Below are positions 1 to 12,458 of a stretch of 14,548 nt of DNA, in pieces. The stretch's first letter is position 1, and each line of letters begins with the position of its first letter. The translations under genes were made by a program, and so were the position numbers. Source of the stretch: a virus (Duplodnaviria > Heunggongvirae > Uroviricota > Caudoviricetes); the IMG/VR virus record IMGVR_UViG_2529293142_000010; one strand, given 5' to 3'. The notes under the pieces were generated by a model. The model ran no database searches, had not been told where the DNA came from, and saw only the letters and a program-made list of their open reading frames with translations.

Positions 1-209
1 TCTGTCTTGGAAAGAAAAATTACGTGTTCTTCGGTAGCGATCACGGCGGCGAGCGTGGTGCACTGCTGTACGGGCTGATCGGCACCTGCCGTCTGAACGG
101 TATCGATCCGGAAGCGTATCTGCGCCATATTCTGAGCGTACTGCCGGAATGGCCCTCCAACCGTGTTGACGAACTCCTGCCATGGAACGTAGTTCTCACC
201 AATAAATAA
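1..209 (+). CDS. IS66-family transposase, C-terminal fragment (5' end lies outside the window)
   Basis: Frame is open from the window edge to TAA at 207-209. The translation ...KKNYVFFGSDHGGERGALLYGLIGTCRLNGIDPEAYLRHILSVLPEWPSNRVDELLPWNV matches the conserved C-terminal motif of IS66-family transposases as I remember it. Confidence 0.8.
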   Translation, partial: CLGKKNYVFFGSDHGGERGALLYGLIGTCRLNGIDPEAYLRHILSVLPEWPSNRVDELLPWNVVLTNK

Positions 210-238
210 GCGTCAATACGGTGCTCCGTTGACGCTTA
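207..238. repeat. Perfect 10-bp inverted repeat (TAAGCGTCAA / TTGACGCTTA) with a 12-nt spacer at the IS terminus
   Basis: Read directly from the sequence: 207-216 and 229-238 are exact reverse complements. The left arm overlaps the transposase stop codon. Confidence 0.7.
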
Positions 239-239
239 C

Positions 240-335
240 AGGCAAGGCGACGCGGATCTGGTTCTTTGTTGTTTCCCGCTCGGACTTGAATGTTTCGGCA
301 AGGTCACCGCTACGAGTCTGGTCTGATATGGCCAT
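240..335 (-). pseudogene. 5' remnant of a gene interrupted by the IS66-family element (first 32 codons MAISDQTRSGDLAETFKSERETTKNQIRVALP)
   Basis: ATG at 335-333 is preceded by AGGAG (rc of 344-348) with an 8-nt spacer. The frame runs into the IS-derived sequence and stops at 215-213 after 8 further codons. Confidence 0.45.
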
Positions 336-350
336 TTGATAAACTCCTGA

Positions 351-376
351 AAACAAAAACCCGCCAAGTGGCGGGT
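351..376 (-). terminator. Rho-independent terminator closing the minus-strand cassette
   Basis: GC-rich hairpin CCCGCC-AAGT-GGCGGG at 360-375, followed on the minus strand by TTTTTGTTT (rc of 351-359). It lies about 20 nt downstream of the stop of the small ORF at 397 and is asymmetric, with no T-run on the plus-strand side. Confidence 0.75.
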
Positions 377-396
377 CTACAGGAACAACTCTAAGT

Positions 397-567
397 TTAT
401 TTTTTCTGTTTAAAATTGTCCAACTCAGGTTCTTTAACGCTTTCTGTCATGTAATCCAATCCATCAAAAGGTACTTCAAGCATTATACTGCTTTCATAAT
501 CAGCCATGGATTGCTCTGCTTGCGTTGGCTTACTTTGCTGTGAGTTGTCATTATTTGATGTTGTCAT
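397..567 (-). CDS. Small acidic hypothetical protein, 56 aa (MTTSNNDNSQQSKPTQAEQSMADYESSIMLEVPFDGLDYMTESVKEPELDNFKQKK); below the ORF-track length cutoff
   Basis: ATG at 567-565 lies 3 nt after the stop of the upstream membrane-protein gene (571-573); stop TAA at 399-397, just before the terminator. Same strand and same AT-rich composition as its neighbour. Hand translation gives 11 D/E, 5 K and no R. Confidence 0.5.
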   Translation of the reverse strand: MTTSNNDNSQQSKPTQAEQSMADYESSIMLEVPFDGLDYMTESVKEPELDNFKQKK

Positions 568-570
568 CAA

Positions 571-1125
571 CTATGCCTTATTTATCAAAAGAAAAGTAAC
601 CGATAATATGAAAAAACCGAAAGATAACGCAATTCCTTCAAAAAGATAACGAGCATAAACTGCCTTTTCTTTATGAAGACTTTCGATCAATTCAACAGCT
701 TTACCATACTGAAACATATGGTATCTAAGCGTTTTAATTTTATCACCGTAAAGTAAAAAATCATGCTCTTCTTTTCGCTTATGAATAGGCATTTTTGGTA
801 TATCTTTCAGTCCCCAAGTACGCCATAGGAAAAAAAAGCACATAACAATACAAACAAAGCATAGATATGCACAAAGTATAGATAATGTTAAAAACCAATT
901 ACTCTTTAGCCCACTTTTGAAATCAACAGTCCCAAATACAGCCAGTAGAGCAGAGGTTTCTACAGCTAAAATAGCAAGAAGGTAGTTAACTTTGTCCTCA
1001 AGACGACGATATGTTGATTTTGCTTCCTCATATCTATCTTTATAATATGACGAAATAAAATCAGCGCCTATAGTCTCAATTGCCTTTTGTTCTTCTGTTG
1101 TATCTATTGGCGAACACTTGCTCAT
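571..1125 (-). CDS. Hypothetical inner-membrane protein, 184 aa, three predicted TM helices with a charged N-terminal region of about 45 aa and a basic loop of about 60 aa
   Basis: ORF track. Hydrophobic stretches are LLAILAVETSALLAVFGTV, FLTLSILCAYLCFVCIVMCFFFLW and GIALSFGFFILSVTFLLI. Very AT-rich, roughly one third G+C by eye against over half in the structural genes. ATG at 1125 lies 7 nt after the stop of the upstream gene. Confidence 0.75.
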   Translation of the reverse strand: MSKCSPIDTTEEQKAIETIGADFISSYYKDRYEEAKSTYRRLEDKVNYLLAILAVETSALLAVFGTVDFKSGLKSNWFLTLSILCAYLCFVCIVMCFFFLWRTWGLKDIPKMPIHKRKEEHDFLLYGDKIKTLRYHMFQYGKAVELIESLHKEKAVYARYLFEGIALSFGFFILSVTFLLINKA

Positions 1126-1132
1126 TTCTTAA

Positions 1133-1480
1133 TCAACCAACAACTTTCTTACACGGGAAAGAGCCAATAATTTTCGGAGCATCCATGCTGTTCTGCAACA
1201 ACTGGACGTTCAGGAAACGCGTTTTAGTGCCCGGTCGATGGATATACTCGAACCCATAATTGTTGCCATCTTTGGCAGGCATCAACTCCATTTTGATCTG
1301 CATGCCTGTACCGTCTTTACCCAACATTTTTACTTTTTGGGATGTTACTGTTTCGCCATTGATTTTAAATAATGAGTCAGGGATCGCATCCATACGAAAG
1401 TTGCCGCATTGCATCGTTATGGTGTTTGCACTTACACCAACAGACACTAACGCCAGCAATGAAAATATCCATCGTTTCAT
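1133..1480 (-). CDS. Hypothetical secreted/periplasmic protein, 115 aa, with an N-terminal signal peptide (MKRWIFSLLALVSVGVSA|NT) and two Cys in the mature part
   Basis: The ORF-track frame 1133..1561 begins at an upstream alternative start; the first ATG with a Shine-Dalgarno (GAGAGGA upstream) is at 1480-1478, and the protein from there opens with a classic positive-hydrophobic-AXA signal peptide. There is no lipobox, so it is not called a lipoprotein. The start is 2 nt after the stop of the frameshifted tail gene. Confidence 0.7.
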   Translation of the reverse strand: MKRWIFSLLALVSVGVSANTITMQCGNFRMDAIPDSLFKINGETVTSQKVKMLGKDGTGMQIKMELMPAKDGNNYGFEYIHRPGTKTRFLNVQLLQNSMDAPKIIGSFPCKKVVG

Positions 1481-1482
1481 TT

Positions 1483-1978
1483 CTATAATCCTCTCTGCAA
1501 AGCAGTGCTGGATGGCATATCCTGCGCACCGCGCGCTTCGCACATCATATCCATGTACCACGCCTGGCCCCTTGTGTCGCCAGTGTACATAATCCCGCGC
1601 ACAATATAAACGCCATCCGTTGCGATGCTGGCAGGCTGCGATGTGGTGCCGCTTAGCGTGATATTTCCATCCGTGTTCTGGTCGGTGATCTGACCACCAG
1701 CCATCGCAATATCGTTGTTCGACAACGCGGTACGATACACTGCAGCCTGATCCAGCTGAATGAGTCCGTTAACCCGGATGTTCGGATTAATAAGCGCGCG
1801 GACGTTTACGCCGTTACCGATAGTCTGCTGCGGCATGCCAATAAGCCCGGTAGCGCTGTTTGAGCACAATCGCTTCATGAACATATTCGTTATTCGCCAC
1901 CATCTGGCGCTGACCATCCACGAATTGCCATGTTGCGCCACATTGCCCGGCTACGTTATCCATTAGGTGCCGCGTCAT
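1483..1978 (-). pseudogene. Phage tail-region gene of about 165 aa carrying an internal +1 frameshift (two overlapping reading frames)
   Basis: An ATG at 1978-1976 overlaps the stop of the upstream 190-aa gene in an ATGA arrangement and opens a frame with good codon usage that stops at 1816-1814 (MTRHLMDNVAGQCGATWQFVDGQRQMVANNEYVHEAIVLKQRYRAYWHAAADYR). The ORF-track frame 1483..1941 has junk-like W/C-rich translation at its 5' end but well-behaved codons from about 1830 down to its stop. Total length 496 nt is not a multiple of 3. Confidence 0.45.
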
Positions 1979-2547
1979 GCCAAAGAGTACCGCCCCCGGG
2001 GGAATACAGTAGCAGGCATTTCAGGCGTCAGGCCTTCGGTCGCGCCTTTGGCTTCGAAGTCTTTCATCAGCGCACGGTTTACATCAGCGACCGTGTAACC
2101 GGCAGCCAGCGTCTGTGAGGTTATACTGGTGGCAAAAGCCAGATCAGTATCTGCTGCCTGAATCAGGACGTAGGAATCAACCGGACTGTCTTTTCCTGTA
2201 ACCGAGTAGCGAATTTCACCGCTGAAAATCAGTCCGTAGTTGCGACCATCACTCTGGCCCACGTCCGCCGCGTCAACTTCCCGCACTGTCCCGACGTCGC
2301 TTGCCGACACCTCCGGCGCGATACCGTCGTAACCCGCAATCAGACGCACTTTCGAAAACTCCTGCCCGGTAATTCGGTTCACAGTATCTGCCGAGAGGTT
2401 ATAAATTTTGATAGTCCCTACCCGGGACGCGCTGCTGATGTTGAACCAGTCGATCGTAAAGGTGACTTTGAAATCACTTAGCTCAATTCCCTGACCGTTC
2501 CCGTCCACAAGCTGCAGCTCGAAATGTCTCATCCAGTTCTGTGACAT
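1975..2547 (-). CDS. Phage tail component, 190 aa (function not recognised)
   Basis: ORF track; ATG start; 2-nt gap after the upstream gene stop; typical codon usage; sits in the post-tape-measure tail gene chain. Confidence 0.7.
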   Translation of the reverse strand: MSQNWMRHFELQLVDGNGQGIELSDFKVTFTIDWFNISSASRVGTIKIYNLSADTVNRITGQEFSKVRLIAGYDGIAPEVSASDVGTVREVDAADVGQSDGRNYGLIFSGEIRYSVTGKDSPVDSYVLIQAADTDLAFATSITSQTLAAGYTVADVNRALMKDFEAKGATEGLTPEMPATVFPRGRYSLA

Positions 2548-2852: not shown

Positions 2853-2974
2853 TTGCCGCCCCCCAGTAATGACGCCACGTTACCCGTGATGCTTTTCAGC
2901 AGTGAAGTATCTGGAGGTTTTGTGGTTTTGTTGCCGCTGTTCTGTACCGCCGACGTGCTGGCCCCTTCCTTCAT
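2849..2974 (-). CDS. Small hypothetical protein, 41 aa (MKEGASTSAVQNSGNKTTKPPDTSLLKSITGNVASLLGGGK); not in the ORF track
   Basis: Its ATG (2974-2972) overlaps the TGA of the upstream ORF and its TGA (2851-2849) overlaps the ATG of the downstream ORF, both as ATGA. Codon usage looks ordinary. Confidence 0.4.
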   Translation of the reverse strand: MKEGASTSAVQNSGNKTTKPPDTSLLKSITGNVASLLGGGK

Positions 2975-3270
2975 GTTGGTTTTATCCGCGACGGTAATCT
3001 GCTATGTCCGGGAGATAATGACCTCCCGTCAGGGTGAGGACGGCGGACTAGGACGTTTTCGGTTGTCTTGTCCGTCGTCACTTCCAGCGCCCGGATCAAC
3101 ATGTTGCTGTACAGCCGTTTACCGGTTACCACATCGAAGGGGATACGGCTTTCCTGCAGACCCAGTAGCTCCTGATACGTCTGCTGAGGACTCAGGCCGA
3201 GCAGGCTGGTAGCCGTCAGGTTACTGGCAAAATCCAGCAATGCGCCGCCACCGGCAAAACCAACCTCCAT
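2971..3270 (-). CDS. Phage tail component, about 99 aa
   Basis: ORF track frame 2971..3276 begins at a GTG; the first ATG is at 3270. The 5' two thirds have good codon usage; the last 25 or so codons are rich in rare codons (AGG, AGA, ATA, TTA), so the true 3' end is uncertain. Confidence 0.55.
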   Translation of the reverse strand: MEVGFAGGGALLDFASNLTATSLLGLSPQQTYQELLGLQESRIPFDVVTGKRLYSNMLIRALEVTTDKTTENVLVRRPHPDGRSLSPGHSRLPSRIKPT

Positions 3271-3392
3271 CACCACTTCTGACGGTTTTTATAGGCATGA
3301 TCAGCGACAGCGGCCCCGACCTCTACCGGATGCTCTGTTATTTCAAGCATATCTGTGTGCTTCTCTGAAATAACAACACTGGGAACAATCAT
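3270..3392 (-). CDS. Possible small ORF, 40 aa (MIVPSVVISEKHTDMLEITEHPVEVGAAVADHAYKNRQKW) filling the gap after the tape measure gene
   Basis: ATG at 3392-3390; its TGA overlaps the ATG of the next gene by one base (TGATG). The Shine-Dalgarno is weak (AGGA immediately adjacent to the ATG). It contains the 10-bp inverted repeat at 3336-3375. Confidence 0.25.
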   Translation of the reverse strand: MIVPSVVISEKHTDMLEITEHPVEVGAAVADHAYKNRQKW

Positions 3393-3439
3393 TCCTATTT
3401 TTCTGCTCTGCTGATGAAAAAGTGTAGAGAGAATATCCA

Positions 3440-5428
3440 CTAACCCACCCTCACCTGATTACTTCGCATGACCTGAGCATTTGCAGACTGTTGCCGACGT
3501 GCAACCTCATTACCGACAGCGTGCGGATCTCCGCCACCGTAAATGTGGTAGGTATTTTGCTGGTTAACCTCTGTCACTTTGCCACTAATTCCCGCCACGG
3601 CAGCCTTATTAATCAGCTCTCGAGAATAGATATTTCTTCCATTCTCATGCTGGATAATGCTGCTCATCAATGCTGACATGGTTTGCGGATCGCTCATATT
3701 CAGGGCAGCCCGGGGATCCACTCCCAGTCGTTGCGATACAGCCCTGATATACGCGGTTGTGTTGTTATTATCAGACGCAGGTGCCCAGGTAGAGATAATT
3801 TTCTCCACACTGTTTATTCCCCGTCCGGCGTACAGCATTAACTGACGAGCAAGAGCCCGTAATCCATCAAAAGCGGTTTCAAATCTGGCAAATCGCCCGC
3901 CCGGGCGTTCAAGAGAAGCCCCAGCCTGACCAGCAAAATTAAGATTTCCCGGATTGTTATTCCGTTCTCCTCGTTTCGTAGCCTGTGCATGTTGTTCCGG
4001 CTCATCATCACCAAACCAGCCGCGTACCGTCCGGCCCACACTGCGGGGATCAAATCCCCAGTGCTCTTTAATCCAGTCGGCAGTACTGTTAGCGCTGTCT
4101 GTAACCATCGGCATCGCTGACGGATTTTCGCTGCCCTGATTAAGTATCTGTTTGCCGATGCTGACGGCATCAGCCCAGCGGCCATCTTTGATAGCGTTGA
4201 GCAGGTCGGCGATCATGTTCAGCATTTTGCTGAATTCGCCCATCTGGTCGATGAAGTTGCTGAAATCCCACTTCAGGGACCATGATTTGGGGTCAATATT
4301 GAGCAGTTTCGCCAGCGCTTTCACCAGGTCGTTAACGGTCGTTTCAAGGTCACGAACCATCTTCAGCGCGGCATCAACCTCCGGTTTCCACTTGCCCCAG
4401 TCAATCAGGCTGTCGCCGCCTTCCTTCCAGGTCTGATAGTCCTCCCACAGGAGGGCAATCCCCGCCGCCAGCGCGGTAATGAGGCCAATCGGCGACATCC
4501 AGAACGTACTGTTCAGAATGCGCAGCGCAATCGTCAGTGCGCCAAACAGCGAGATCAACTCCCGCGTTTGCTTATCCAGCGATTGCCACCAGGTGATGAG
4601 GCCTGATGTCCCCTCAATCAGTCTGAAGAACAACCGCCCGATAATATCCCCGAGCGCCAGAATGCCTTTTATGGCTTTCGTCAGGGTCTGCTCGATACGC
4701 GGGAAGTTGTCCAGGATATGGCGGCGCAGAGTGTCCAGCGAACCCGCAAGCCCACCCGCAAGATTAGAGCCGATTTTGTCACGGGCCATGCCTGCCATCG
4801 CGCCAAACTCACGCAGGGAGGTCATAAATTTGTTGGAGCTTCTGGCCGCCTCGTCAGCATTGAAGCCGATAGCTTTCGCCATTGCGCTGTACTGCCCGGA
4901 GAAGCCACCCACACCGCGACGCACAGCCATCAGGGTATTTTCGTCAATGCCCAGCATCTGCGCATACTGGTTAGCACGGTAATACGGCATGTCGCTGAGC
5001 TTCTGGCCTACCCCTGTAAAAATAGCGGCCATGTCACGCATGTTACCGCTGGCATCCCGTGTCTGTACCCCCAGACGATTCAGAAATCCCTCCGCCCCGG
5101 GATTATTACGAATAAACCGGGAGAGGTTTTCCAGAGAAGATCGCGCAGCGTCCACGCTGCCGCCAACCTGCGAAACCGCATAGCCAATAGACTGAATTCC
5201 CTGGACTGTCGCTCCGGTGCGCTGTGACGCCCAGTAAAGATTATCCAGACCGGAGGCGATCTTAGCCGTGAAGGCCACCACGGACAGCGCAGTTCCTTCG
5301 ACGGCCAGCCCCATTTTGATGACATTTGCAGTTGTACCGGCGAGGACAGAACCGAATTTTTTCGCTCCTGCATCATCCACACTGAAGCCAAGCGAGACGA
5401 GGAAATCTTTAATAGTTTCAGCGTTCAT
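3440..5428 (-). CDS. Tail tape measure protein, about 662 aa
   Basis: Large ORF directly downstream of the frameshifted chaperone; Ala/Gly-rich helical N-terminal part; internal hydrophobic segments (LISLFGALTIALRILNSTFWMSPIGLITALAAGIALLW). The ORF-track start at 5449 is a TTG; the first ATG is at 5428, preceded by GGAGAGAGG. Confidence 0.85.
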   Translation of the reverse strand: MNAETIKDFLVSLGFSVDDAGAKKFGSVLAGTTANVIKMGLAVEGTALSVVAFTAKIASGLDNLYWASQRTGATVQGIQSIGYAVSQVGGSVDAARSSLENLSRFIRNNPGAEGFLNRLGVQTRDASGNMRDMAAIFTGVGQKLSDMPYYRANQYAQMLGIDENTLMAVRRGVGGFSGQYSAMAKAIGFNADEAARSSNKFMTSLREFGAMAGMARDKIGSNLAGGLAGSLDTLRRHILDNFPRIEQTLTKAIKGILALGDIIGRLFFRLIEGTSGLITWWQSLDKQTRELISLFGALTIALRILNSTFWMSPIGLITALAAGIALLWEDYQTWKEGGDSLIDWGKWKPEVDAALKMVRDLETTVNDLVKALAKLLNIDPKSWSLKWDFSNFIDQMGEFSKMLNMIADLLNAIKDGRWADAVSIGKQILNQGSENPSAMPMVTDSANSTADWIKEHWGFDPRSVGRTVRGWFGDDEPEQHAQATKRGERNNNPGNLNFAGQAGASLERPGGRFARFETAFDGLRALARQLMLYAGRGINSVEKIISTWAPASDNNNTTAYIRAVSQRLGVDPRAALNMSDPQTMSALMSSIIQHENGRNIYSRELINKAAVAGISGKVTEVNQQNTYHIYGGGDPHAVGNEVARRQQSANAQVMRSNQVRVG

Positions 5429-5657
5429 TATCCTCTCTCCATTTCTCAATGCGCCGCTGGTTATCCGCTTTTACCGCCAGATGGTCATTCAAGAGAGCAA
5501 TGTCATACAAATCGACAGAGCCATCTTTAAGTGCTGTATAGGGAATTAACCCGGCGTCAACCGGATTGAGAAGGTAGGACAGCCCGTCCGGCAGGCTGTT
5601 AAACGTCAGCCCTGTTGCAGGCTCTGCGTCGTGCTGGTAAGGGGTGTAGGCAAAAAA
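5425..5657 (-). other. -1 frame extension of the tail assembly chaperone (GT-like fusion product); slippery heptamer T_TTT_TTG at 5657-5651
   Basis: The chaperone reads ...GGA AAT TTT TTG...; after a -1 slip the frame stays open for about 77 codons across the otherwise non-coding 177 nt between the chaperone stop and the tape measure start, ending at TGA 5427-5425 beside the tape measure ATG. Confidence 0.65.
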
Positions 5658-6512: not shown

Positions 6513-7658
6513 TTAGCGAACAACGTTAATCTGTACGTCAGCGTAATGAACCGCGCCTGCAAGTTTTATTGCAGCCTGAATCACCGGAGCCTTACGGGCT
6601 TCACGTTCTGATTGTGCCTGTTCATCCAGCGGCTGGGCGTATACGTAATAACCTTTGGGCAGTGTGTCACCTGATGACAACTGACCAAGGTCGCCCCCGT
6701 TCCATACACCCGGAGCAATCAGTCCATTCTGAACGGCCTGATCCAGTGATTTTTCAACATTTGATAACAGTCGGGTAATACCGGCTTCAGTCTGGGGAAC
6801 TTTCGTGGTGCTGGTATAAAGCAGGTTATAGAGGTTGGTCTGCACATAATTCTGTAACCAGTCCAGGCCGTGGCGTTCATCAAAGAAATCGCCGTTAGCC
6901 ATCACTCCCTGCTGGAGGATAGCCGTATCATTCTGGTAGTACACGAATACATTGCAGTTTTTTGCATCAAGTGCCGATGCCTGGCTGACTGTCAGTGTTT
7001 CATACCCGACACCCGGCTCCTGCTTAAACTTGAGCGTAATCGCGGTATTACTGCCATTGAAATTAACCGTGAATGCCCGGCCAAATGCAGATAACGCAGC
7101 GTATTTATTACCCGATGAATACTGAATAAAACTGCGTGAATATCCGGCATTTTTCAGTTTTGATGCCAAATCATCGCTGGATGCAGTCTGCAGGCATTTC
7201 TCATCGCTTGTCGTAATCGCCAGAATACGGCTTACAGAAGAGGATTCGATCGCCGCAGCCACTTTCAGCCAGTCTGCATCCGGAATATCTTCATCGTCTG
7301 CAATCCCCAGCCCATACCATGAAGTATAATCGAGCATGGCATTCACAGCCTGCTCCAGCGTCTCAGGCGTGGCCTGTTCGCTGTCTCCCTTCGTTTTCAC
7401 CCAACGACCAACAAAAACCTCCTGAGGTTTCGGTGATTGAGAGAAAAACACCTGCGCAGCCTTATATTCTGGTGATTCCACGCCAAAATCTTTTCCAATA
7501 TCTTCCGCGGCAGAATAACGGCGAATGCGCTCACTTACCGGAATGATTGTGGACGGGCCGAGAATGAGTAATGCACCAAAATTTCGCCCTGATGCTGCAC
7601 GCGGCGACATGATCACATCAACATTAACAACGTTTGATACAGGCAAGCCCTGTGCCAT
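6513..7658 (-). CDS. Tail sheath-like or major tail protein, 381 aa (resembles what I recall as the DUF3383 family)
   Basis: ORF track; ATG start; size and position immediately upstream of the tube-like gene. Confidence 0.7.
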
Positions 7659-7661
7659 AGC

Positions 7662-8270
7662 TTAATCTCCGAAAAAGATGACTGGTGCTTCCACCAGCGA
7701 TTTAATACCGTACTCGCGCACAACCTTCCGGCGCAGACGCACCGTCATATCGTAGCGGCGGACCCATTGCTGATTAATAAGTTCAGGGAAGGGAGTCAGA
7801 CCTGTGTAATCGCCAAGAGACAGCCCCAGCGCATTCAGTGCTGCGTTGTTCTGCGGTACAGATATACCGTCACGAAACCGGGACGCATACACCATCCCCG
7901 CCGGACCATAAAACGAAGCCATACACTCAATCGTTTCATGCCGCCAGAGCTGAGAGCCATCATCGGTCTGTCTGGTGAATGCCGGACTGTCATCACCTGA
8001 CCATCCGATAACCCCAAACGCACACCAGTTCGTTTCAGCCGGTAGCAGTGGCGGCTGCTCTTTCTGCCAGCGCGGACGAACCATCCCGGCAGACAGACCG
8101 GAAACGTTACGCATCCACTGGCTTAACAGCCTGTCGAGCGCTTCGTCATAATCCGGATCGCCACTGGTTGGTATCAGCCATCCGCGCTCTGTGCTGGTGT
8201 TATTGCTCAACCGGAGTTCCCCCATCAAACGGCAGCAACTCACAATGCGCCTGAACGAATCCGACACCAT
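7662..8270 (-). CDS. Head-tail joining or tail terminator-like protein, about 202 aa
   Basis: ORF-track frame 7662..8288 starts at a TTG; the first ATG is at 8270 and another at 8225. No good Shine-Dalgarno at any of them, so the start is uncertain. Overlaps the 3' end of the upstream gene. Confidence 0.65.
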   Translation of the reverse strand: MVSDSFRRIVSCCRLMGELRLSNNTSTERGWLIPTSGDPDYDEALDRLLSQWMRNVSGLSAGMVRPRWQKEQPPLLPAETNWCAFGVIGWSGDDSPAFTRQTDDGSQLWRHETIECMASFYGPAGMVYASRFRDGISVPQNNAALNALGLSLGDYTGLTPFPELINQQWVRRYDMTVRLRRKVVREYGIKSLVEAPVIFFGD

Positions 8271-8589
8271 AAGCTGTATACGGGTCAACGAAGGTCACAC
8301 GGTAATCACGGCCCTGATACGTCACGATATCGGAATCACGGCCAGTCTGTCCCTGCGTCAGTCGCTCAGTCGTCACAATCAGAATTGCACCACTGATTAC
8401 CTGCCCTGCCTGCATACGGCGGTTTTCCAGAGAGCGATCAACAGTTACGACTCCGGCAAACTGCTTTTTAACTTCACTGTCGCTGCCGATCCCGTCCTCA
8501 TCCACCGTTTGCACTCGGCGTGTTACCCACAAATTGAAGTCGCAAAAATCGGGGTCAAAAAGCACATCTGTTACATCAAGAGTCGGCAT
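8200..8589 (-). CDS. Head-tail connector or tail completion-like protein, 129 aa
   Basis: ORF track; ATG start; overlaps the upstream gene stop by 14 nt. Confidence 0.7.
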   Translation of the reverse strand: MPTLDVTDVLFDPDFCDFNLWVTRRVQTVDEDGIGSDSEVKKQFAGVVTVDRSLENRRMQAGQVISGAILIVTTERLTQGQTGRDSDIVTYQGRDYRVTFVDPYTAYGVGFVQAHCELLPFDGGTPVEQ

Positions 8590-11224: not shown

Positions 11225-11482
11225 TTACCCTTTACGGTTTGCCCAGAATTCGGCGTTTTGTTTGTTCAGGGAAGCGATACTGGTCATGCCCATGTTTGGG
11301 CGCTGTGCATCGCCGGTGGTGGCGCGGGTGTTTCGCCCTTTGGCAATCTCAGACACGGCATTAAACGCCATGTCGACCGATTGTTTCGGTAATTTGCGGA
11401 TATCCGCATCACCGACTATCTGGCGAACCAGCGTTTTGTCAGCAGAAGCCAGAACCTCACGTTTGAACGCGGTCGGTTTCAT
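11225..11482 (-). CDS. 85-aa ORF that is probably the C-terminal part of the upstream scaffold/protease-like gene rather than an independent gene
   Basis: ORF track. Its frame stays open, with no start codon, for a further 90 codons upstream to 11752, encoding an acidic low-complexity stretch ([49 protein letters not shown]...) and overlapping the 3' end of the 11650..12444 ORF. Confidence 0.5.
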   Translation of the reverse strand: MKPTAFKREVLASADKTLVRQIVGDADIRKLPKQSVDMAFNAVSEIAKGRNTRATTGDAQRPNMGMTSIASLNKQNAEFWANRKG

Positions 11483-11649
11483 CTTACGGCTCAGATCAAT
11501 ACCCGGAACAATAACTTCGGCACGCCAGGCTGAGTCACCAGTAATCGTGGTTTCCTCTTCATCGTCCTCGCCGTCACCGGTCGGATTATCGTCAGGCTTA
11601 TTATCGTTATCGCCCGTGGCATTTCCTTCCAGCTTAGCCAGCAGGGCTT

Positions 11650-12444
11650 TCAGTAATGTTTTGAGGTCATCATCACTGTCGCCGGTTGGGCCTCCCCCAT
11701 CTCTGGTGCTTTGTCCGGTAGTGGTTGCTGCGGGGACAGGTTGATATTGAGATTAACGCCCTGCGGCAAATCCCCCTCATCTCCTGTAACCGATGCGGGA
11801 GCCGACTCCACCAGTTCGTTCATGGTGTCGGCATCTCCTGTCTTGATGGCCGCACGCATGCGGTTCCACCAGTTTTTCTTTTGATTTGCCATTGTGTCTC
11901 TGTCTCCAATTGCACAACGATTTCCGGCTCTGCCTTTAGGGACAAGAGCCACATGGTTTCCGGTAATATCGACCTGCTCAGCTTTACCTGGCTCGGTCTG
12001 CTCGTACTCCGCGTCATAGCCGCACGACACTTCGCGCAGGCCATCTTCGATAAGCTGAATGGCGTTTTCGTCTTTGACGATAAGGTCAGCCAGCATCAAA
12101 TCAGACTGCTCACCCGTCCCGCGCCGGACATTCTGGAGGTGCCCGACAGCAAGCTCTTTCCAGTTCTCGGGATTTACCAGCCGCACATTCCCGTTTTCAT
12201 CTTCAGGATGCAGAATCGTGATGCTCATCCCTTCGAATGAGGCAAGCGTGGCCGGATGGAATACCTGCTCAGGAGAACGCGTGACGACTATTTCACCGAA
12301 CTTATCGGGTTTCAGTTTTGGCAGGTCATCAGCACCATAGAGCTGCTTACCTGTTCGTCCTATCGGCACGTCTTTGCACAGCAACGAGCCGTCAGCCAGC
12401 TGATAGCGGGTTTCCCCCAGCCGGGTATTGAAAAAATATTTCAT
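11650..12444 (-). CDS. Scaffold/protease-like head protein, 264 aa as written (DUF2213-like); probably truncated by a frameshift
   Basis: ORF track; ATG start with AGGT upstream; position after the MuF-like gene. A run of five C on the plus strand at 11694-11698 (GGGGG on the coding strand) is where a 1-nt length change would join this frame to the 85-aa ORF frame, giving about 400 aa. Confidence 0.7.
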
Positions 12445-12458
12445 GTGTTACCTGCGAT

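Follow-up and report, generated by a model that had tools for sequence, protein, structure and literature searches.

A 14,548-nt stretch of viral DNA (IMG/VR record IMGVR_UViG_2529293142_000010, Caudoviricetes; hereafter the window), belonging to an Escherichia coli prophage of the SEN34/Brunovirus-like temperate myophage type, carries on its minus strand at 1133-1480 a gene for a 115-aa protein that, from its sequence, is almost certainly Sec-exported, relieved of its signal peptide and released into the periplasm as a 97-residue basic β-barrel. The gene lies in a slot between the baseplate hub gene and the spike gene. Across related prophages, it is all but certain that this slot always encodes an exported protein, and that the 115-aa protein itself is swappable, dispensable for the tail and not an obligatory part of the virion. 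We tentatively read the protein as a protective factor acting in the periplasm, of the superinfection-exclusion type.

The gene is real, as confirmed by 386 homologues and by a ratio of nonsynonymous to synonymous change (dN/dS) of 0.08 in its core. It comprises 115 codons from the ATG at 1480-1478 to the TGA at 1135-1133 (stop included in the coordinates); its product has the same sequence as WP_000832850.1 from E. coli O55:H7 CB9615 (100% identity), and the same 348-nt gene is the RefSeq annotation in near-identical prophages. The original prediction had set the start at ATG 1480 behind the Shine-Dalgarno sequence GAGAGGA, and both are located as claimed, the latter at 1489-1495 (minus strand), 8 nt 5′ of the ATG and within the 3′ end of the hub gene; purine-rich counterparts of this motif precede the gene in related loci. 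That prediction had also set aside a longer frame, rightly so: the 142-aa open reading frame (ORF) from GTG 1561 is ruled out as the gene, and is thus an artefact created by its overlap with hub coding sequence, given (i) the RefSeq gene, (ii) a PHROG profile of the family that begins at M1, and (iii) the absence of an in-frame upstream start from 53 of 94 related loci, which frequently have an in-frame stop 1-5 codons upstream.

Tight coupling to the last tail gene had likewise been proposed. The junction is indeed kept, with a gap of 2 nt between the hub TAG (1485-1483) and ATG 1480 in the window and, in 92 of the 94 related loci, a start positioned -8 to +11 nt relative to the hub stop; the two exceptions are lipoprotein fusions. 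The upstream gene is, however, the baseplate hub, and the 115-aa protein is encoded between hub and spike; its apparent place at the close of the tail region is due to an IS66-family element that truncates the spike gene. Judging from the conserved stop-start junction, we infer that the gene is expressed with the late tail operon; a crude consensus match detected no sigma-70-like promoter on the coding strand upstream of it. In published phage genomes, the starts of SEN34_20 (L003, 6001-6342), QBP28333 and QBP27692 (L005, 5001-5279; L006, 5043-5276) are set some 20-36 codons late, with loss of the signal peptide; the real starts adjoin or overlap the hub stop, and the present analysis corrects these mis-annotations.

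Codons 1-18 (1427-1480, minus strand) encode the predicted signal peptide, MKRWIFSLLALVSVGVSA, followed by Asn-Thr. It combines K2/R3, a hydrophobic core LLALVSVGV with a 9-residue Kyte-Doolittle mean of 2.7 (elsewhere in the protein the maximum is 0.84), and V-S-A in positions -3/-1, after which signal peptidase I is predicted to cleave. The call is made from heuristics (charge, Kyte-Doolittle hydropathy and the -3/-1 residues) together with the behaviour of the family, in which the three heuristics all hold for 91 of 120 homologues and the signal peptide varies in sequence with its charged/hydrophobic/AxA pattern retained. The n-region, h-region and AxA-type site of the signal peptide originally proposed are thereby all found. 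The protein has no lipobox (L-[AS]-[GA]-C) and no Cys before residue 25. Given the Sec-type signal peptide, the mature domain (1136-1426, minus strand; 10.8 kDa, isoelectric point 9.4) would be periplasmic.

Two cysteines near the ends of the mature protein, already pointed out in the original prediction, turn out to be conserved. Cys25 (codon 1406-1408, minus strand; mature Cys7) is invariant in 121 of 121 sequences and Cys110 (codon 1151-1153, minus strand; mature Cys92) is found in 120, the single homologue without a match being a frameshifted copy. An AlphaFold2 model of the mature protein, built from a 32-sequence alignment (predicted local distance difference test 87.9, predicted template-modelling score 0.76), is all-β, with seven long strands and a short hairpin, and assigns Cys7 to the first strand and Cys92 to the last. 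The invariant pair thus probably forms a disulfide that staples the barrel; this placement of the cysteines is consistent with the disulfide-stabilised fold proposed earlier.

The model supports, with good confidence as to the fold, a small β-barrel that has no close structural or sequence relative. Foldseek searches of the model against the PDB and BFVD returned nothing significant (best E-value 0.3), and a sequence-profile search of the PDB returned nothing below an E-value of 0.19. Fold-comparison figures were highest for a haemoglobin linker (8.9), followed by Cap15 and 5hal (7.6), avidins (~7.4), PhiA (6.9), Brucella PliC (6.6), the type VI secretion immunity protein BtaiB (6.5), YdhA/MliC (5.7) and PliC-St (5.6). 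Resemblance to avidin/calycin-like and Cap15-type minimal barrels comes with an identity of only 5-11% and no significant Foldseek match; moreover, neither context suits the present protein, Cap15 being a membrane effector that faces the cytoplasm and avidins being biotin binders.

The family to which the gene belongs (phrog_3443) occupies the same place, in the order hub, phrog_3443 gene, variable cargo, spike, in every locus examined, cultured phages included. A sample selected through the hub gene (80 IMG/VR loci, 79 informative; skewed to close relatives of the E. coli phage) complemented loci L001-L034, which were selected via the gene itself. Full-length copies were present in 69 of the 79 informative loci, and in the other 10 the slot held an unrelated exported protein: a 241-aa lipoprotein (MSRLAITTIVFSLFLTSC followed by SWD) at the same offset in six, and a secreted protein of ~150 aa (MKKQVIVAITMLISTTSFA followed by EP) in four, starting in L094 with a TTG located 2 nt after the hub TAA. 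Three of these four (L094, at 7537-7590; L101; L107) keep a 17-codon scar of the displaced gene's 3′ end, MDAPKIIGSFPCKKVPG plus stop, which marks a recombination joint inside its conserved core. The tail genes of the 10 loci are otherwise 94-100% identical, and in L052 the tape measure is 100% and the spike 97% identical to the CB9615 reference with the lipoprotein in place of the 115-aa protein. Its absence from 10 near-identical tail modules means that the protein is not needed for the tail, which upholds the earlier view that it is no virion component.

The same loci show how differently the slot and its surroundings have evolved. Median identity to the CB9615 reference among the hub-selected loci is 97% for the hub, 98% for the tape measure, plug and baseplate J proteins, 99% for the tube and 95% for the spike, vs. 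61% (range 51-100%) for the 115-aa protein, which divides into six allele classes against a uniform tail background. Synonymous differences between alleles are near saturation (proportion, pS, of 0.62-0.68); over the last 120 hub codons, pS is 0.23 and the nonsynonymous proportion (pN) 0.03, as taken from in-register pairs only. The dN/dS falls from 0.95 in the signal peptide (residues 1-18) through 0.43 in the mature N-terminus (19-39) to the above-mentioned 0.08 in the core (40-113). Sequence comparison thus presents the gene as a series of old alleles that have been swapped through recombination at the hub 3′ end and whose core is under strong constraint. Positive selection was considered and rejected, since the divergence is ancient (pS ~0.65) and dN/dS is below 1 everywhere.

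The family is catalogued and uncharacterised. The protein matches phrog_3443 ("unknown function") over its full length (E-value 1.4e-51, residues 1-114 aligned to positions 1-114 of the 115 in the profile), with no match in scans of Pfam, NCBIfam and PADLOC. RefSeq names the orthologue in the 97.7%-identical EL361 prophage a "STY1065/STY2022 family phage-derived protein", for which the NCBIfam release scanned held no matching HMM. The 386 homologues, from a word-indexed search, come from Escherichia, Salmonella, Klebsiella, Raoultella, Serratia, Photorhabdus, Pantoea, Dickeya and others; in the aligned sequences, conservation is high over residues 40-113. An exhaustive profile search of 1.84 billion representatives yielded only 47 matching ones, among them lipoprotein-fused versions and a distant subfamily. 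The latter, ~35% identical, has the same signal peptide and Cys pair, and in 27 of 27 genomic loci its gene follows the hub gene and precedes the spike gene by a gap of 60 nt to 4 kb. In complete E. coli genomes, the gene is detectable in 283 of 5426 (~5%), in all cases on the chromosome. Matches labelled as plasmids are mostly phage-sized (25-77 kb), non-mobilizable records, which are probably circular phage genomes; one weak match (30% identity) lies in a 617-kb Rahnella replicon.

Two variations on the family architecture bear on its function. First, the domain forms the C-terminus of lipoproteins of roughly 265-300 aa in L031 (7424-8314), L013, P0141 and P0164. These have a lipobox (present in L031, P0141 and P0164) with A/T at +2, i.e., of outer-membrane type, and a ~190-aa N-terminal domain for which Pfam gave no match, nor did NCBIfam and PHROGs for the L031 copy. 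Second, two diverged family copies stand in tandem in the hub-spike interval of L012 (~7536-8345) and L028 (~1274-2840), from Serratia/Pseudescherichia. Tandem diverged paralogues are also seen in immunity-gene arrays. Two giant repeat proteins, P0121 (4267 aa, E-value 1.7e-42) and P0143 (851 aa, E-value 1.8e-11), were rejected as homologues; their scores sum 13-20 weak repeat matches to a stretch of ~40 residues, and they were regarded as spurious matches or else extremely remote ones.

The reading we favour, at somewhat less than an even chance and by way of sequence and analogy, is that of a protective factor active in the periplasm, of the superinfection-exclusion type. Following export, the protein would fold in the periplasm as a disulfide-stapled barrel, the core of which would bind a component of an incoming contractile tail, i.e., the tube tip or the ejected tape measure with its muramidase; alternatively, the core might bind a conserved envelope component needed by the tail. 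Such binding would stop genome entry or envelope damage. We lean towards exclusion because of the compartment, the slot held by exported proteins only, the outer-membrane-type lipoprotein variants, the tandem paralogues, the ancient alleles, a GC content below that of the tail genes, the neighbouring genes of toxin-antitoxin/defence-like character (described below) and the precedents of Spackle, Llp and Ltp. Receptor masking, one of the roles first suggested, is unlikely for a soluble periplasmic protein.

These precedents are instructive in both their likenesses and their differences. Spackle (gp61.3) of T4 is a periplasmic superinfection-exclusion protein that blocks the tail lysozyme gp5 (PMC7677548), acting on the lysozyme domain of this tail-tip component of incoming phage (PMC7677548, PMC7650644). 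Like the 115-aa protein, it is a small (~10 kDa), exported phage protein; unlike it, Spackle is the product of an early gene of a virulent phage, encoded outside the tail module, and the comparisons made here gave no match to it in sequence or fold; a Spackle-like action on a tail enzyme is put forward here as conjecture. The T5 Llp and TP-J34 Ltp lipoproteins exclude phages at entry (PMC9586334, PMC3952083) and, together with phi80/N15 Cor, are exclusion lipoproteins whose genes adjoin the virion gene that they counter; they are envelope-targeted and encoded beside tail-tip or receptor-binding genes, as is echoed by the lipoprotein variants at the present slot; the 115-aa protein differs in being soluble, with no lipobox, and in showing no co-variation with neighbouring tail genes.

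Several results weigh against exclusion. The alleles have no association with the spike, tape measure, baseplate J or sheath classes (adjusted mutual information, AMI, of at most 0.11, within permutations), and hence nothing indicates that a tail part is recognised in an allele-specific way. Searches of PADLOC, Pfam, NCBIfam and PDB sequences revealed no homology to a known exclusion or defence protein, and the fold matches are to generic barrels (best Foldseek E-value 0.3). The crude consensus match detected no sigma-70-like promoter upstream, and expression in the lysogen is where exclusion would matter most. Searches of the literature on the STY1065/STY2022 family, on SEN34/Brunovirus/Mulock, and on exclusion combined with the baseplate brought up nothing on this family.

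Among the alternatives to an exclusion factor, the one that fares best, though we hold it unlikely, is a lysogenic-conversion or host-fitness factor comparable to lambda Bor/Lom or prophage SodC, i.e., a periplasmic binding protein that would alter envelope stress, serum resistance or host-lysozyme resistance. An avidin/calycin-like barrel as modelled could hold a small ligand, and the protein is exported, dispensable, encoded at low GC content, and present or absent among relatives. Its gene is also intact in a decayed prophage truncated by an insertion sequence, yet the intact 348-nt frame carries little information given that this prophage is 99.4% identical to an intact one. Exported morons, in the sense of Juhala and Hendrix, are well known in tail regions (lom, bor, sodC), and with Lom/Bor, SodC and HK97 gp15 the gene shares an exported accessory product encoded among tail genes, deviant GC content, presence/absence and a terminator after the block. 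Where it departs from them is in the lack of a detected promoter of its own, in a start that adjoins the hub stop in 92 of 94 loci, which points to late, lytic expression, in a conserved slot and in the lack of homology; furthermore, it keeps strictly to one tail module, with no occurrence seen outside it.

A specific periplasmic inhibitor of the muramidase at the tape measure C-terminus, analogous to Spackle or MliC/PliC and shielding the cell wall from incoming or progeny tails, is improbable. Such a partner would be at hand: the muramidase-like domain at 3479-4009 (minus strand, within ORF 3440-5449) is a candidate for a partner exposed in the periplasm, and the ~180 C-terminal residues of the tape measure match PDB 7q47 ("Endolysin", E-value 9e-14), 9vvp (Gp29, E-value 1e-20), phrog_873 and phrog_7182 ("tail injection transglycosylase"), so that by homology the tape measure carries a virion-associated cell-wall hydrolase. 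PhiA, PliC and MliC are likewise secreted barrels, that of PhiA being eight-stranded and disulfide-stabilised (PMC8334348), and the invariant D-G-N-N-Y loop (residues 71-75) loosely recalls the lysozyme-binding motif SGxxY. Against this, there was no Pfam MliC match (PF09864; E-value ≤0.1), hhalign gave a probability of 0.1% against an MliC/PliC alignment (for which the E. coli MliC sequence was confirmed against PDB 2f09), the critical Ser of SGxxY is Asp/Asn in the family and Pro/Thr in the distant subfamily, and unrelated barrels score higher in the fold comparison. Lysozyme inhibition, as first suggested for the protein, is thus unsupported by sequence. The tape measure C-terminus also forms one class vs. 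six for the 115-aa protein, and L052 pairs its reference-identical tape measure with the lipoprotein instead.

A late periplasmic regulator of lysis or release (a sensor resembling T4 RI, or an antiholin partner), or a protector of the producing cell from lysis from without, would suit the periplasmic location and the co-expression with late tail genes, to which the conserved stop-start junction most simply points; we consider it highly improbable, as the protein has no similarity to holins, antiholins or spanins, is replaceable by unrelated exported proteins without other changes, and belongs to lambda-like phages whose lysis genes lie elsewhere (PMC6856289). Finally, a baseplate or assembly protein with a hydrophobic N-terminus that is not a signal peptide would explain the fixed position inside the baseplate block and the tight junction with the hub gene, but can hardly be correct given the n-region/h-region/AxA pattern that is retained while the sequence drifts freely, the invariant Cys pair that would require an oxidising compartment, the absence from 10 of 79 otherwise near-identical tail modules, and the existence of lipoprotein-fused variants.

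Between the phrog_3443 gene and the spike gene lies a second slot with cargo of its own. In the window, it holds a gene for a 184-aa membrane protein (571-1125, minus strand), starting 7 nt past the preceding stop, and one for a 57-aa acidic protein (397-570, minus strand; phrog_18231) that co-occurs with the 184-aa family. A terminator-like GC-rich hairpin with a T-run (357-378, minus strand) closes the three-gene accessory block before the spike and belongs to that block, not to the phrog_3443 gene alone; situated inside a presumed single late operon, it would need to be read through by late antitermination. GC content is 53-57% in the tail genes, 40-43% in the phrog_3443 gene and 31-37% in the cargo. 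Across loci L035-L114, one- and two-gene modules shuffle in this interval, comprising a YafO-toxin pair (PF13957, E-value 4e-17), proteins of 250-270 aa with a weakly HEPN-like partner, a DUF2335 membrane protein, a 79-aa membrane protein and the pair of genes seen here. These look like prophage cargo of the toxin-antitoxin/defence type. A PADLOC match of the 184-aa protein to PycTM, a Pycsar effector (E-value 9e-4, 17.6 bits), was discounted as likely transmembrane-helix noise, with no cyclase nearby. A single system made up of all three accessory genes was also rejected, the association of the 115-aa protein with the cargo being only weak (AMI 0.15 vs. a permutation maximum of 0.12).

The prophage in the window is 99.4% identical to one in O55:H7 CB9615. 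Its order of transcription is tape measure, baseplate protein, plug (Pam3_gp18), baseplate hub, 115-aa protein, variable gene(s) and spike, and in intact relatives the spike is followed by genes for a gp25-like protein, baseplate J, wedge and fibres. Here, homology to relatives ends at 239, inside the spike gene, of which the first 32 codons remain (239-335, minus strand). The rest of the tail module is replaced by an element end (1-238, plus strand) that we take to be of the IS66 family from the translation of ORF 24-209, a transposase C-terminus; the junction at 239 occurs in no complete E. coli genome of the collection. Comparison with the CB9615 prophage reveals eight single-base indels (354, 1859, 1989, 3028, 3049, 3285, 11221 and 11695), nearly all in homopolymer runs. 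They split the hub gene (1483-2547, minus strand; phrog_196; stop TAG at 1483-1485), with +1 at 1859 and -1 at 1989, as well as the baseplate protein gene (2853-3440) and a DUF2213 head gene (~11226-12446), and stem either from decay of the prophage or from sequencing errors in homopolymers.

Exported morons are already known from tail regions; the present case stands out by a conserved slot that adjoins the hub stop, by the other exported proteins that can fill it, by its ancient alleles and by a barrel without a close structural relative. Whatever the function, the two-slot accessory hotspot (an exported protein, then toxin-antitoxin/defence-like modules) is useful for the mining of prophage cargo. 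More speculatively, and with considerable doubt on our part, the hub-spike interval of SEN34-like myophages may be a dedicated, hub-coupled slot for exported proteins, the occupants of which would be a new class of periplasmic gatekeepers against penetration by contractile tails or against ejected proteins, with alleles that would constitute a long-lived polymorphism maintained across Enterobacterales through competition between phages. Only a small number of phage-exclusion proteins that act in the periplasm are understood and, to our knowledge, T4 Spackle is the only soluble example. If the exclusion reading is true, the 115-aa protein and its relatives would provide a widespread and readily testable prophage barrier in E. 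coli, Salmonella, Klebsiella and related genera, with a bearing on host range in phage therapy.

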